NCBI GenBank assembly: GCA_051942245.1
Contig: JAVECL010000031.1
Span: forward strand, 1 to 64,000
Direction: 5' to 3'
Length of the DNA stretch: 64,000 nucleotides
Source of the DNA: Trypethelium eluteriae
Taxonomy: Eukaryota
Each line of letters opens with the position of its first letter. Position 1 is the stretch's first letter. Shown one piece after another: positions 4,873 to 60,559 of the stretch. The notes beneath the pieces were generated by a model. That model was not told the DNA's origin. It ran no database searches and was given only the letters and a program-made list of their open reading frames with translations. The position numbers were made by a program, and so were the translations under genes.

Positions 4873-6824
4873 ATGCTTTCTTTGGCGGGTCAAGCATTTC
4901 GTTTTCTTTGCTGTTCTTTGGCATTTCTTCAAAACCGGAACTTTTGCGAAAATTCAGAGCATGCCTTATCGAAGAATGTGGTTCATTTCCAGGTAGACCT
5001 GACCGCTGGAGAAGTAAACCCTACTGGTGCTGGCTTCCGTAAAGTCATCCTCGTCAATGATAGTTTCACCGGCCCTTCTCTACGTTTGAGCGTAGGGGAC
5101 CACGTGGAATTTCTTGTGCGAAATTTCCTACGAGTGGATACTTCGGTTCACTTCCATGGCATAAGTCAAAAGGAATCGCCATGGGCTGATGGGACGCCCG
5201 GGTTGACACAGAAGGAGATCCGGCCCGGAGCTTCGTATCTCTACAAATGGCAGGCTGATCAGCCTGGTGTCTATTTCTATCATGCACACAATAGGGGTCA
5301 AATCATGGACGGATTATACGGAGCGATCATCATTGATGCTCATCCCGAAGCAGAGCGTCCATTCCATCTCATCAGTCGTGACCCTGCTGACCAAAGTGCC
5401 ATGCGCGCAGCGGAGAAAAGGCTACAACCATTGGCAATCTCTGATTGGAGTCAGCTCACGTTCTCTGAGTTCTATAGGGTTGAACGAGAGGCGAATATTG
5501 ACTTCACATGCATGGATGCGATTGTTGTTAATGGGGCCGTAAGTTACAAGTCTAGACCCCAATACAAGCCAAGATATTGATGTCTGACATCCGCTGATAG
5601 GGATCCCAATATTGTCTAGATCGCCAATCCCTCGATGACTTCACCAACCCTCTGGTAAAGGCTATTCTCGCAGCTACTGGCGAAAAGGGCATTACCGACA
5701 AAGGCTGTGTGCCGCCTTTGCAGCTCTTCCAGGGTAATTTCACGCTCAACCTCGATGCGCTCCCGCCCGAGGCCTACAGAAGATGTATTCCAGGCGTTGG
5801 AGGGCAGGGAAACTTCACTGTACATGCACACTCGGGAGAGAAGTGGGCGGCCCTGACCTTCATCAACCCTGGCGGTCTGTACCCTCTCAAGGTGACAATC
5901 GACAATCATCCGCTTCACGTCTATGCCGTCGACGGCCAGTACATTTATCCACAGACCGTGGACCAAATTCTTGTCAACAATGGAAACCGCATTTCGGTAT
6001 TTGTTAAACTTGACCAGGGAGTCGGAAGGTACACTATTAGAATCGCTAACGATCTATTGGGGCAAGTGCTAGGCGGTTTCGCGGCGCTCTCCTACAACGG
6101 AGCGACAGAAGAGCCCGCTGAGAGCCGTCCAATGATGAACTATGCCGGCCAACCGCTTTCGGAAACAATCCGGAAATTCTCCGAGGATACAGCTCGCCCA
6201 TATCCGCCTCTTAGGCCAGCTAGGTCAGCAGATAGGACTCGTAAGTTTTTAGTTAGAAAGCTTGGACGTCCCTATGGATCGTACGAGTGGACGCTCTCAG
6301 GACATCAAGGCTACAATATCAGTGAGGAAGATAGATCACCTCCCGTTCTTTTCCAGGACCCCGACAGATTCAACTCGAGCGAAACTGTTATGAAGACCAA
6401 GAAAAATGAGTGGGTGGATCTAATCCTCGAAGTGGAAGGCCCGTTTGCGCAAGCACACCCGATGCATAAGCATGGTAACAAAGCATTCGTCATTGGTTCT
6501 GGAGTTGGTTCTTTCCCTTGGGCCACTGTCGCTGAAGCGGCAAGAGAGTTGCCACCCAGTACCTTCAACACCGTTGACCCACCTTACAGAGATAGCTTCA
6601 ATACTATCGAAGGGGTAAATAGCAATACCTGGCTAGTTCTGCGGTACAAAGCTGAGAATCCCGGAGCATGGCTCTTCCACTGTCATATCCAGACACATCT
6701 GACCGGAGGTATGGGAGCCATGATACTAGATGCGGTAGATGAGTTTCCTAAGATTCCTCGCGACTATCTAGAATGGAACGGATTCAAAGAGCCAAAGGTG
6801 GCACCCACGGAAGAGGGTACTTGA
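4873..6824 (+). CDS. elcG: Laccase-like multicopper oxidase (phenol-coupling type), ElcG/CTB12-like
   Basis: Exons 4873-5538 and 5601-6824 (GT..AG intron, frame preserved). All four Cu motifs present: VHFHG, FYHAH, HPMHKHG, WLFHCHIQTHLTGGM. Confidence 0.92.
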
Positions 6825-55990: not shown

Positions 55991-57385
55991 ATGGCGGTTG
56001 CGGCCCAGTCCCCAATCTTCCAGTCCATGGAGTCAGAGACTTCAAAGTCTAGGGCCGTGGACATGGCCAGTACGTCGCAAGGTCTGCCGTACTGGTGGAG
56101 TACCAGTGGACGCGATCTTGCCAACATGCTTCACGAGGCCAATTACCCCGAGGAAGTTCAACGTCACTTCTTGAGCTACTATCGAGATATCATTTGCCCC
56201 CGACTGGGAGGCCAGCCTGGCGAGGATTCTGTCAAGAGCGGGGTGGGCTGGGATGGGAACCCATTGGAATATAGCTTTGAGCTGAAAGGCACGACCAAGA
56301 CCCAGGCTGTTCGTTTCGTCGTTGATCTCACCCAGCTCCGCCCAGCGGACAGGAGCAGTCCTCTGAGCATGGACACCACGCAAAAAGTGGTGGACATGAT
56401 GGCAGACAAGGCACCGGGATTTGATGAGAACTGGAGCAAGTCGCTGCAGCGATGGTTCGTCTATGACCACCTATCTGAGGACGAACAAAAGGCCTTGATC
56501 GCCAAGGCAGGACAACAGACTTCTGTCATCCTGGGTTTCGACATATTCAAACGCGTTGCTGGCCCCGATGGGCTGCCGGTCATGGCCAAAGTCTACTACC
56601 CTCCCTGCTACACTGCCGCAGCCAAAGGAATTACCCGTTGGCAAGCCGTCCGTCAAGGTATCCAGCAACTTCCAGGCGTTAGCTCCTATCCCAACATCCT
56701 GAAGTCAACCGAGATCATCAACGACTACCTGTCTGACAAACCCAGAGAATGGCAGATGGGCACCCGGTACTTGGCCACTGACCTCGTTGGTCCGGAAAAG
56801 GCGCGCATGAAGGTGTACATGCGCTGCTTTGGACGGACCTTCGATGACATCTGGGACTACTACACCCTTGGCGGCCGAATCACCGGTGTCGAGGAAGATA
56901 AGGAGAAGTTCCGGGACATGATGAATTTCGTAAGCGGCACAAACAACTATGATGCAGAGATCTCCAAGCAGGACCCGCTGGACGAGACCCGATACCGATC
57001 GGCAACTGGCAAATTGACGGCCATTTACTTCTCAATCTCGGCCGACAACCCCATTCCGGCCCCCAAACTCTGCATCTACCCTGCCAACTTCGCACCCAAT
57101 GACGAAGTCATTGCCAAGGGACTGGATAAGTGGTTGACCAAATATGGGTGGCACCATGAAGGGGCCTCCATGGAGGAACAAGTGAAGAGAGTCTTGTACG
57201 TGCTTTCCCGCTAATCTGATTCGAGTGACGCTTCTAATCAAGGAAATAGTGACCATCGCCCACTGGGAAAGAAGACAGGTATTTTCACTTTCATCGGCAT
57301 CGGAAGGAAGGAGGATCCAACCAGCAAGGATCTGAGTATCCAAGTCTACGTGACCCCTGAGCTTTATGAGACCCCGCGGTACTAG
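55991..57385 (+). CDS. phnF: DMATS/ABBA-family aromatic prenyltransferase, PhnF-like
   Basis: Exons 55991-57195 and 57250-57385. YWWSTSGRDLANMLHEANY, WDGNPLEYSFE, AKVYY, LATDL..ARMKVY, YYTLGGR, PKLCIY..ND, IQVYVTPE. Confidence 0.85.
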
Positions 57386-57819
57386 ACGGCTGTGTTTGAA
57401 ATGTAGTGCACGGATATTCACCCTTTTTCGAGCCAATTGGGCAGTGGCGGTCACTGTGGGGTGGTTGTGTCTCCTGTCACAATTCTCTTGACGCTCTACG
57501 ACAATCTCATCTACCAGGCGAAAAAGTAAAAGGAGGGTGGGACTGGTGTCTTCGATTGTGTGACTTTGGTCTAGATAGAATACTACAAGAGTCTGAACTT
57601 CATGTTAAATGGTCAAATTGTATTACCAAGTCTGATTGTACGAGGTCGTTGCGTTCTTGCGGGGGGAATGTTCAGAGCAAACCGAATCTATCATCGAGTT
57701 GACAATGCTTCCGACAATCGAACCTGAGCGTAAGTCGTACTTGATCATCAAAGTCCCTTTGCACCCTCATGCGGCAGGTTTACGTTTGTCTTTAGTCGGC
57801 TATGTAGGTAGCTAATATA

Positions 57820-57871
57820 ACGTGTTTCACAAGTGAGCTGATCACCCGGGCGAGCTGATCAACCCCACCAC
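57820..57871 (+). repeat. Left terminal inverted repeat
   Basis: ACGTGTTTCACAAGTGAGCTGATCACCCGGGCGAGCTGATCAACCCCACCAC, with an internal direct repeat GAGCTGATCA x2. Confidence 0.95.
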
Positions 57872-57910
57872 GCGTCGCGCGTACGAACCTTTAATTCTCA
57901 ATTGACAACC

Positions 57911-59554
57911 ATGCAAGCTTCTAATAAGTCTAATCTTGAGGGAAGACTTTTATTAGCTATTCAAGCCTATAAATCCGGTGAAATTAAAAGTCTTCGTAAA
58001 GCTGCTGCTTTATACAACGTCCCATACGCAAGCCTTAATACACGCTACCACGGTACTCCTTCACGACGCGATACTCGACCAGCAACACGTAAACTTACTT
58101 TTACTGAAGAAGAAGTTCTTATTCAGCGTATTCTCGACCTTGATATTCAAGGATTTCCACCTCGAATATCTGTCGTACGAGAAATTGCAAATCTTATCCT
58201 CGCAAGCCGCGAAACAACCCCACTACAAACTGTCGGCAAAAATTGGCCTACAAACTTCGTGAACAGCTGCGATCAACTTCGTACGACATATAATCGAAAG
58301 TATGACTATCAACGATCACAATGCGAAGATCCAGTCGTTATCCAGGGTTGGTTCAATCTCGTACGAAATATGATTCGGAAATATGGAATACTTGATGATG
58401 ACATCTACAACTTTGATGAGACTGGCTTTCAAATGGGGGTTATTGGAACTGCAAAAGTTGTTACAGGGACTGAGAAAAGAGGTCGTACGAGGACTGTACA
58501 GCCAGGGAATCGAGAATGGGTGACTGTCATTCATGGAATTAATGCAAAAGGCTGGGCGCTTCCGGCGCTAATCATCCTAAAAGCAAAGCTTCACCAAGCA
58601 ACCTGGTATACTAATAACGACCTACCACGCGACTGGCGCATTGCTGTAAGTGAAAATGGCTGGACTGACGATCAGATTGGCTTTGAATGGGTTCAGCACT
58701 TCCATAAGCATACTGAGCGTCGTACGAAAGGTCAATGGCGCCTCCTTATCCTTGACGGCCATGGAAGCCACCACAGTGCTAGATTTGAGAATTTTTGCAA
58801 GCAGAACAAGATCCTTACGCTCTGTATGCCTGCACACTCATCTCATATCTTACAGCCACTTGATGTGGGCTGTTTTAGTCCACTAAAGCGAGCGTACGGT
58901 ACGCAGGTTGAAGGACAAATGCGACTTGGCATCAACCACATCACAAAAGAGGACTTTCTATCAATCTACTATATCGCGCACACTCAAGCGATTACAGAAA
59001 AGAATATCCTTAGTAGCTTCTCAGCAACTGGACTTGTTCCTTTCAATCCAGATTATATTCTTTCAACCCTAGATCCTGTCGTACGAACCCCAAGCCCGGT
59101 ATCTACACATGAGTCAATCTGGGAGTCAAAAACACCTCGTACGATGCCTGAAATCAAGCGCCAAGCAAAGCATATCCAAGAGCAACGCCGACTTCGCAAA
59201 AATAACTCAAAATCTCCATCGGATAGTGCCTTTAATCAGTTATTAAAAGGTTTTGAAGTGGCTGTACATGAGAGAGCAATTTTGATGGCAGAGGTCAAGG
59301 AACTCCGAGCTGCAAACAAGCGGCAGACACGCCAGCGAAACCAACATCGTACGACTATTGCAGATGGAGGTACCTTGAGCATCAGTGAGGGTCAGAACAG
59401 GGTTACTGAAGGCCAATTGGAGGAGCAAATTCAGAATGAAGTACGAATTGTTGAAGCGCGTGCTGGTCCAAGTCAGCCAAAAACACGTGCTGCACCTCGC
59501 TGCAGCTTGTGTAAATCACTTGAGCATAACGCAAAGACTTGTACAAGACGTTAG
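57911..59554 (+). CDS. Fot1/pogo DDD transposase (HTH-psq, CENP-B-like HTH, DDE_1, C-terminal CCHC)
   Basis: ATG at 57911. SLRKAAALYNVP, YNFDETGF, LLILDGHGSH, LQPLDVGCF, RCSLCKSLEHNAKTC. No internal stops. Confidence 0.95.
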   Translation: MQASNKSNLEGRLLLAIQAYKSGEIKSLRKAAALYNVPYASLNTRYHGTPSRRDTRPATRKLTFTEEEVLIQRILDLDIQGFPPRISVVREIANLILASRETTPLQTVGKNWPTNFVNSCDQLRTTYNRKYDYQRSQCEDPVVIQGWFNLVRNMIRKYGILDDDIYNFDETGFQMGVIGTAKVVTGTEKRGRTRTVQPGNREWVTVIHGINAKGWALPALIILKAKLHQATWYTNNDLPRDWRIAVSENGWTDDQIGFEWVQHFHKHTERRTKGQWRLLILDGHGSHHSARFENFCKQNKILTLCMPAHSSHILQPLDVGCFSPLKRAYGTQVEGQMRLGINHITKEDFLSIYYIAHTQAITEKNILSSFSATGLVPFNPDYILSTLDPVVRTPSPVSTHESIWESKTPRTMPEIKRQAKHIQEQRRLRKNNSKSPSDSAFNQLLKGFEVAVHERAILMAEVKELRAANKRQTRQRNQHRTTIADGGTLSISEGQNRVTEGQLEEQIQNEVRIVEARAGPSQPKTRAAPRCSLCKSLEHNAKTCTRR

Positions 59555-59627
59555 AAGTGTAATCTAATACTTTTTGAATCTATATAATCTAGTTGTGGAT
59601 AATTAATGGGTACAAAAGCATTGAGGG

Positions 59628-59679
59628 GTGGTGGGGTTGATCAGCTCGCCCGGGTGATCAGCTCACTTGTGAAACACGT
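59628..59679 (-). repeat. Right terminal inverted repeat
   Basis: Exact reverse complement of 57820-57871. Confidence 0.95.
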
Positions 59680-60559
59680 TAGTACGGGCCTGATTACATC
59701 ATCCACAGTCCGCCCCTTCCTGCCATAACACTTCGTTCACTGGTTGATCCGCCGGAAATCCTCGCAAAGGCGATCCGTCTTCAAGACATTAAATACCTGT
59801 GCAGAATACTTAGGCAGGTGGTCCGTCACAGTACATCGAAAGCGAGTATGCTCCTGTACTTGAACCCCAAGAGACTGAGTATTCTGACAAAGAGATCGCG
59901 AAGCTGCTAATTTTAGAAGCAAGAGATGCTCCTTGGATCTGCTCCACCTCGTACAAATTTGAATCGGCGACCTCAAAACCCGTTCATGACTACTCTTTTC
60001 GAGGAATGGATCAGAAATATGTGACTTCCGCGCGGTGGGCCTAAGGAGTTCTGCTGCTTCTGGCCCCCAAACTTCACTGCTGGCTAGCCAATCAGTGCAT
60101 AGAGAAGCCGCCTTGGGGGCTGATCTTGGGAACCGTCATGGACTAATCCTGACCGTTCTGTGCTGAAGCTTAATCCTTTTGAGGGTGCAATACGCGAATT
60201 GCCTCTACAATGGATCCTTCAAAGGCTCAGCTTGGTGTTTAAGATCCTCGCTTAACCCATTTGCCTTGTTTCTTTCTTTCAACTGCAAAACAGGCAACGA
60301 GGCTTAGTTGGTCAAATGTCGAAAGCCTATAAAATGAAAAGCCGAAGCCTCAACGATCTGAAAACCTGTACAGGTGATGTTCGCTAGGTCAAAGATTCTG
60401 CACGAAGCCTTGCGTGCACTGGTGAAGTTTTTTGAGCCATAACCATGCAGGCAAGCTGACTGGCCATACTACCTGATAGCTCCTTAACCTGGCGTTCTCT
60501 CTCACTCTTCAGATCTTGGATTTGCCCAAATACTGCTTTCCGTGCTCAAACAGGCTAAA

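Follow-up and report, generated by a model that had tools for sequence, protein, structure and literature searches.

Why is a transposase gene studded with one 8-bp palindrome, TCGTACGA? The gene belongs to the element at 57820-59679 of the window, the whole 64,000-nucleotide stretch of Trypethelium eluteriae DNA that was analysed, and this element is an ordinary Fot1-type pogo transposon (Table 1). Fot1 is DD35D, and the window transposase shows the same spacing (D282 to D318, 35 residues between). HTH_psq, HTH_Tnp_Tc5 and DDE_1 all score above the Pfam cut-off in the ORF, the left TIR holds two 13-bp direct repeats (57835 and 57852, 17 bp spacing), and TA flanks the element on both sides. 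The TA duplication, TIR direct repeats, HTH_psq, CENP-B-like HTH and DDE_1 domain are likewise those of the Fot1 subfamily (pogo, IS630-Tc1-mariner), to which PMC7325037 assigns TA duplication, short TIRs with direct repeats, HTHs and DDE_1; unlike the subfamily as described, the window element has a palindrome laid over its ORF and throughout its body. Eight other ends in the genome, four left and four right, all lie at contig ends, are preceded by TA and are 100% identical over 139-140 bp with differing flanks, so the element probably spread recently; it is intact and, judged from its sequence, appears recently active. A tryptophan dimethylallyltransferase gene (Trp_DMAT by Pfam, 55991-57343) is found ~480 bp before the element, which probably sits in a secondary-metabolite cluster. 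In a different pogo family (L028, 1372-1440 and 3490-3545), the TIR repeats are spaced 17 bp apart and are based on the palindrome CGTGCACG.

Table 1. Features of the pogo element in the window and a copy of the hAT family outside it
Feature	Position	Strand	Remark
Left TA target-site duplication	57818..57819	.	sequence
Left TIR	57820..57871	+	52 bp, perfect inverted match
ACGCGT, MCB-like site in short leader	57870..57875	.	
CGTACG core in leader	57880..57885	.	one mismatch vs 8-mer TCGTACGA
Transposase ORF, intact	57911..59554	+	547 aa, DD35D
DNA-binding domains HTH_psq + HTH_Tnp_Tc5	57938..58264	+	Pfam
TCGTACGA, Val-Arg frame, aa 88	58173..58180	.	kept in diverged remnant L010
TCGTACGA, Arg-Thr frame, aa 123-124	58279..58286	.	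CGTACG in same column in 19/80 relatives
TCGTACGA, Val-Arg frame, aa 150	58359..58366	.	CGTACG in same column in 31/80 relatives
TCGTACGA, Arg-Thr frame, aa 191-192	58483..58490	.	0/80 relatives
DDE_1 catalytic domain match	58511..59020	+	Pfam
TCGTACGA, Arg-Thr frame, aa 270-271	58720..58727	.	CGTACG in same column in 42/80 relatives
CGTACG core, Ala-Tyr-Gly frame, aa 328	58893..58898	.	same column in 46/80 relatives
TCGTACGA, Val-Arg frame, aa 390	59079..59086	.	
TCGTACGA, Arg-Thr frame, aa 409-410	59137..59144	.	0/80 relatives
TCGTACGA, Arg-Thr frame, aa 479-480	59347..59354	.	0/80 relatives
Zinc-knuckle pattern CX2CX4HX4C, C-terminal	59501..59542	+	identified by eye
Right TIR	59628..59679	-	
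Right TA target-site duplication	59680..59681	.	
hAT family, RIP-damaged copy	L160:1266-3682 (G000:C1230)		at least 24 other ends

The first-pass annotation had reported eight perfect copies of TCGTACGA in the element and a single copy elsewhere in the window; all eight are exact, from 58173 through 59347, and the only other one lies at 6279. These nine copies compare with a mean of 0.52 and a largest count of 2 in 100 shuffles. The additional CGTACG cores noticed near 57880 and 58893 are both present, and 10 of the 20 CGTACG in the window fall inside the 1.86-kb element. The sites had been described as falling in two reading frames of the transposase, and indeed three are in the Val-Arg and five in the Arg-Thr frame, with the core at 58893 adding a third. 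Codon-preserving shuffles, which had been proposed as a check, yielded a mean of 0.12 and a maximum of 3 copies, and stricter shuffles in which codons and all dinucleotide counts were fixed yielded a mean of 0.66 and a maximum of 5; eight copies were reached in 0 of 20000 shuffles of either kind. Both shuffles rule out protein constraint, codon bias and dinucleotide bias as the cause. The protein permits TCGTACGA at eight places, all of which are used, and amino-acid shuffles reached eight permitting places in only 4 of 10000 trials (mean 1.88). An insertion target site was rejected, as none of ten end flanks fits TCG-TA-CGA. The earlier proposal of a DNA-level signal embedded in the coding sequence is thus supported by every null model tested.

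Positional conservation was followed in the best 80 of 204 related metagenome loci, which share 38-53% amino-acid identity with the window transposase; 62 of them fall into a single cluster when grouped at 70% nucleotide identity. CGTACG occurs 284 times in these 80 relatives against 53.5 expected, and 61 of them are individually enriched. Position is conserved in part: four sites of the window element are shared with 19-46 loci that are only ~53% identical in DNA, and three are private to it. Near the site at 59079, a site in the Arg-Thr frame is shifted one codon further along in 27 relatives, and relatives also carry sites of their own at different codons, with each of the three frames represented. 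When 13 representatives were subjected to the codon and dinucleotide shuffle, a clear excess was found in the clusters L043/L044/L059 and L057/L067, L056 and L082 were borderline, and no excess was seen in L047, L060, L068, L080, L083 or L052, the group of the last having lost most of its CpG. The motif-rich trait is patchy on a pogo tree drawn by quick search from 27 of 81 rows and two outgroups.

Several further loci touch on individual sites. The remnant in Table 1 (L010, G000:C74:23901-24138) is short and 78% identical, and a RIP-damaged pogo of the same clade (L249:3300-4950, G000:C785) has a modest purine/pyrimidine shadow of the word (12 pattern matches, 9 of them TA-centred) that takes in the aa 150 position. 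Homologs P0003-P0008 and many close homologs have Ser-Tyr-Gly in place of Ala-Tyr-Gly at aa 328, which would lengthen CGTACG to TCGTACG. Loci L091-L094 and L096 have CpG observed/expected ratios of 0.08-0.17 and high CpA; their host mutates CpG rather than CpA.

The specificity of the word is narrow. In a motif-rich set, which was chosen on outcome so that the contrasts between variants alone are informative, TCGTACGA occurs 21 times against 0.83 expected and CCGTACGA 9 times against 1.59, and core mismatches occur 0-1 times. Only the outer base varies, from T to C, giving a specificity of YCGTACGR. Among ten CGNNCG words only CGTACG is enriched (41 against 5.9), and TACGA outside CGTACGA is found 21 times against 24.7 expected. 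The word is the same across pogo lineages that are ~45% identical, whereas their TIR repeats differ. Four-fold degenerate positions within sites showed no extra conservation in the large cluster (0.81 against 0.77, p=0.33; 62 members, of which 42 were kept below 90% identity).

A second superfamily in the same genome carries the same word. A genome search for paired sites returned 25 matches against 7 for the control, all of them with the terminal sequences of one family, a hAT element of ~2.45 kb with 14-bp TIRs, subterminal repeats and an 8-bp target-site duplication (three distinct left/right flank matches). Pfam found no hAT domain in the damaged copy itself; Dimer_Tnp_hAT was found in five of nine homologs scanned, these five being the longest, and a BED-like finger is present in homologs. 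Each hAT end contains TATCGTACGATA twice, giving four perfect copies among 19 CGATA-type units. All ten hAT copies read are RIP-damaged (GC 0.20-0.28), and the assembly contains no intact hAT site cluster, with three dispersed pairs beyond the window element (control 2). The right-end repeat has 11 letters, TCGTACGATAG, in common with a promoter element of Pseudocercospora fijiensis.

Because transitions preserve purines and pyrimidines, the pattern YYRYRYRR of TCGTACGA can be sought in damaged copies. It occurs 28 times in the hAT body against 6.8-8.4 expected, a count reached in 0 of 1000 simulations and ranking first of 256. Across 6-7 copies, 18 body sites are compatible with TCGTACGA, none of them intact, and an outer C or G appears in any copy at 3 of the 18. 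The three closest homologs show the residue required by TCGTACGA in 25 of 35 cells, compared with 2 for the residue that the rival TTGTACAA would need. Tripeptides permitting TCGTACGA rank first of 256 palindromes both in the 30 closest hAT homologs (161 against 38) and in the 27 closest pogo homologs (125 against 49), counts that are inflated by relatedness among the rows; in a CYP51 control TCGTACGA ranks 103 of 256. The evidence is thus strong that the hAT body carries ~20 mutation-eroded copies of TCGTACGA, with the ancestral reading inferred. At ~1 per 100 bp the sites are denser than in pogo, and hAT homologs just ~41% identical show the same trait. The hAT and pogo transposases have no domain in common. 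In neither family do the body sites have the TA flanks or CGATA units that accompany the sites at the hAT ends.

Elsewhere the word is not enriched. Genome-wide, TCGTACGA occurs 432 times, at or below the expectation of Markov orders 2-4 (470-550; 243 at order 1), which rules out a sink or enrichment of the HIP1 type. Fifteen other pogo segments contain one CGTACG in 14475 bp, and no excess was seen at 30 reverse-transcriptase loci representing few independent families (pattern 314 against 330) or in 116 AT-rich windows. The seven damaged pogo controls are non-independent, four of them being one family. No further family with the word was found in the 20 smallest contigs or in 182 kb of AT-rich islands, and two other hAT relics lack it as an enriched motif; when 179 one-kb windows from repeat-rich islands were ranked, the top two proved to be a further copy of the hAT family described above. 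Single host sites are biased neither towards promoters nor in their flanks (42 sites in 40 stretches, drawn from the first 50 in the list of 432), 24 of the 42 lie in open frames of at least 150 aa (background 46-62%), and Pfam matched 4 of 137 open frames near host sites, none of them sterol genes. On these counts, we conclude that the TCGTACGA excess is a selected DNA signal common to two superfamilies rather than protein constraint, a target site or a mutation sink.

What reads this signal is harder to say. Of the roles that the first-pass annotation had offered, binding by a host factor or another trans-acting protein fits best, binding by the element's own transposase is weakened, a chromatin or methylation role is possible, and a mutational sink is unsupported. 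That a protein binds TCGTACGA is likely. The reading that we favour, while giving it slightly less than an even chance, is that a host-encoded activator binds the palindromes, which are under selection as its sites, and drives or licenses transposase expression. A sequence-specific, probably dimeric host protein would bind the palindromes and activate transcription or open chromatin, and its sites would have been laid over the transposase ORF through synonymous codons and tolerated amino-acid changes. They would sit within the ORF because only ~90 bp separate the left end from the start codon. Lone genomic sites, which are common, would be idle, the dense cluster being what counts, and the hAT clade would exploit the same protein independently. 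The YCG-TA-CGR form resembles the everted CG(A/G) pair bound by zinc-cluster dimers. The clade appears to use host-type sites already, because ACGCG/CGCGT occurs upstream of the ORF match in 36 of 48 relatives (L043-L122; downstream in 1 of 41), and the ACGCGT of the leader is presumably an MCB-like site; cell-cycle control of transposase expression is possible.

The host activator is favoured by the occurrence of one word in transposases unrelated by domain and by its constancy while TIR repeats differ. Further support comes from P. fijiensis, which like the host of the window element belongs to the Dothideomycetes; the host CYP51 is 94% identical to a Trypethelium protein, and this puts the host in the Trypetheliaceae. 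In P. fijiensis, six copies of a promoter repeat increase cyp51 expression 3.3-5.6-fold whereas three copies do not, and the effect moves with the promoter when promoters are exchanged, the assay concerning a 19-bp repeat rather than the 8-mer alone (PMC6637983). The palindromic core named for this repeat in PMC8252799 is the same as TCGTACGA. In these two sources, Pfcyp51 element A consists of tandem 16-20 bp promoter repeats whose copy number raises expression, whereas the 8-mers described here are dispersed and lack conserved flanks.

Several observations weaken the same reading. The host sites show no promoter bias and their genome count is not raised, synonymous positions in sites are not extra-conserved, and several lineages of the clade lack an excess. 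YCGTACGR is also absent at seven of nine sterol or fatty-acid gene loci, CYP51 included. Weakly in favour of the reading, one ERG4/ERG24-family gene is preceded by the 10-mer CTCGTACGAT and the other by CCGTACGAT, so that YCGTACGA-T stands upstream of both, and two TCGTACGA (L179:1501 and 1862, G000:C33) precede a DUF1295/steroid-reductase-like gene; the sterol-gene matches were picked out after the fact and are close to chance. A genome search for the ERG6 family found no match.

Nor do the flanks fit the known regulators. TCGTACGA shares TACGA with the SrbA site ATCATACGAT (PMC3305660) and with the SR DRE, a direct repeat of CGAATACGA (PMC13583232, PMC6420630). Unlike SrbA and SR sites, pogo sites lack AT flanks. 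SrbA was rejected since its ATC..GAT flanks are absent, T following CGTACGA in 2 of 16 pogo half-sites, where it is the least enriched base; these flanks are present at four hAT end sites only, and these end sites, ATCGTACGAT, differ at a single position from the SrbA site of high affinity (PMC3305660). SR (FgSR/MoSR) was rejected since core mismatches, and TACGA outside CGTACGA, are unenriched; PMC13583232 and PMC6420630 report it in Sordariomycetes and Leotiomycetes only. We consider it moderately supported that the binder is host-encoded and activating, and the case for a sterol or hypoxia regulator weak.

Among the alternatives, the best survivor is one in which the binder is the hAT transposase, through its BED finger region, activating or shielding its own copies, the pogo clade having accumulated the word to borrow this service; we regard it as unlikely though worth serious attention. 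The four perfect TATCGTACGATA are interspersed with CGATA-type subterminal repeats, where a transposase would ordinarily bind, and this placement also weakens the host-activator reading. Homologs of the hAT have a BED-like finger, the hAT itself has denser sites than pogo, and the trait is patchy on the pogo tree. BED and Hermes domains of hAT transposases bind subterminal repeats (PMC8097297), and a transposase can switch on its cognate copies, provided that the motif is clustered (bioRxiv 10.64898/2026.08.24.746577). However, neither TA flanks nor CGATA units accompany the body sites as they do the end sites, the pogo element appears recently active despite the RIP damage in every hAT copy read and the lack of an intact cluster in the assembly, and the P. 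fijiensis enhancer is left unexplained. The trait is moreover common to hAT homologs ~41% identical, whereas transposon-encoded specificities are reported in both sources to be family-specific.

It is quite improbable that a host protein instead coats the element body and acts at transposition or defence rather than on transcription, blocking self- or nested insertion, helping the ends to pair, or hindering RIP or methylation. The sites are evenly spread over the whole body of both elements, as would suit coating, and the excess is restricted to cut-and-paste elements, retroelement loci showing none. A local shield against RIP-type change was not seen in the relatives, however, where such change affects 108 of 428 positions within 10 bp of sites (0.25) and 873 of 2985 beyond 100 bp (0.29). 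Coating is further disfavoured by close relatives from four runs in three studies, whose differences are chiefly C>T and G>A changes, by the heavy mutation of the hAT copies and by the presence of sites in the leader and at the hAT ends.

We hold it very unlikely that each transposase binds the word itself, the match between pogo and hAT being convergence or chance, although internal or subterminal self-binding sites do occur in DNA transposons. Plant Spm and Mu are cases in point (bioRxiv 10.64898/2026.08.24.746577). Here, the word is absent from the pogo TIR repeats, the transposases share no domain, the zinc knuckle is found in motif-rich and motif-poor pogo relatives alike, and a first rank of 256 in the hAT set is unlikely by chance. 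That the excess reflects a sink of mutation or repair in the manner of HIP1, or follows from RIP avoidance or codon-pair bias, is scarcely credible and already largely refuted: the word does lack CpA and TpG, the dinucleotides that RIP chiefly targets in relatives (C to T rate 0.29 at CA against 0.13 at CG), and its synonymous positions lack extra conservation in one cluster, but the excess survives the codon and dinucleotide shuffle, is restricted to one of ten CGNNCG words and is missing from host DNA and the other repeats surveyed, amino-acid content is skewed too, and the two CpGs of the word are eroded rather than created in mutated copies.

Known systems resemble the signal only in part. 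HIP1 of cyanobacteria is an 8-bp palindrome found in coding DNA in any frame and genome-wide, whereas the TCGTACGA excess is confined to two transposon clades. The retroelements Ty1 and Tf2 use host regulators through a few sites near the promoter. In plants, VANC of VANDAL elements is a further transposon-encoded regulator with motif clusters, beside Spm TnpA and the AtMu1 transposase. The motifs of TnpA and AtMu1 are, like ours, short words that accumulate in the elements and matter as clusters; each is specific to its family, reported at the termini and recognised by a protein that the element itself encodes (bioRxiv 10.64898/2026.08.24.746577). Unlike the anti-silencing motifs of the TnpA/VANC type, TCGTACGA is common to a pogo and a hAT clade and lies within coding sequence in three frames. 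In the full-text literature, outside of which most subscription journals fall, no palindrome laid over transposase genes in three frames and common to pogo and hAT was found, and the accessible parts of PMC7325037, PMC8608569, PMC6710886, PMC6737239 and PMC5371812, TIRs in figures excepted, make no mention of the word in a transposon.

A regulatory code laid over a transposase gene and common to unrelated superfamilies thus appears to be undescribed in the literature searched. More specifically, the two superfamilies might share one cis-acting "licence" word that reshapes the protein, with pogo hijacking the hAT transposase or both using whatever activates the P. fijiensis promoter repeat linked to azole resistance; we consider this doubtful, if far from idle. 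The purine/pyrimidine shadow test recovers lost motifs from RIP-damaged repeats. The word may lead to the protein that acts on the cyp51 promoter repeat of P. fijiensis, and it may account for some of the DNA transposon insertions that raise the expression of neighbouring genes. If the activator is truly shared with the P. fijiensis promoter, such elements would be portable enhancer cassettes.
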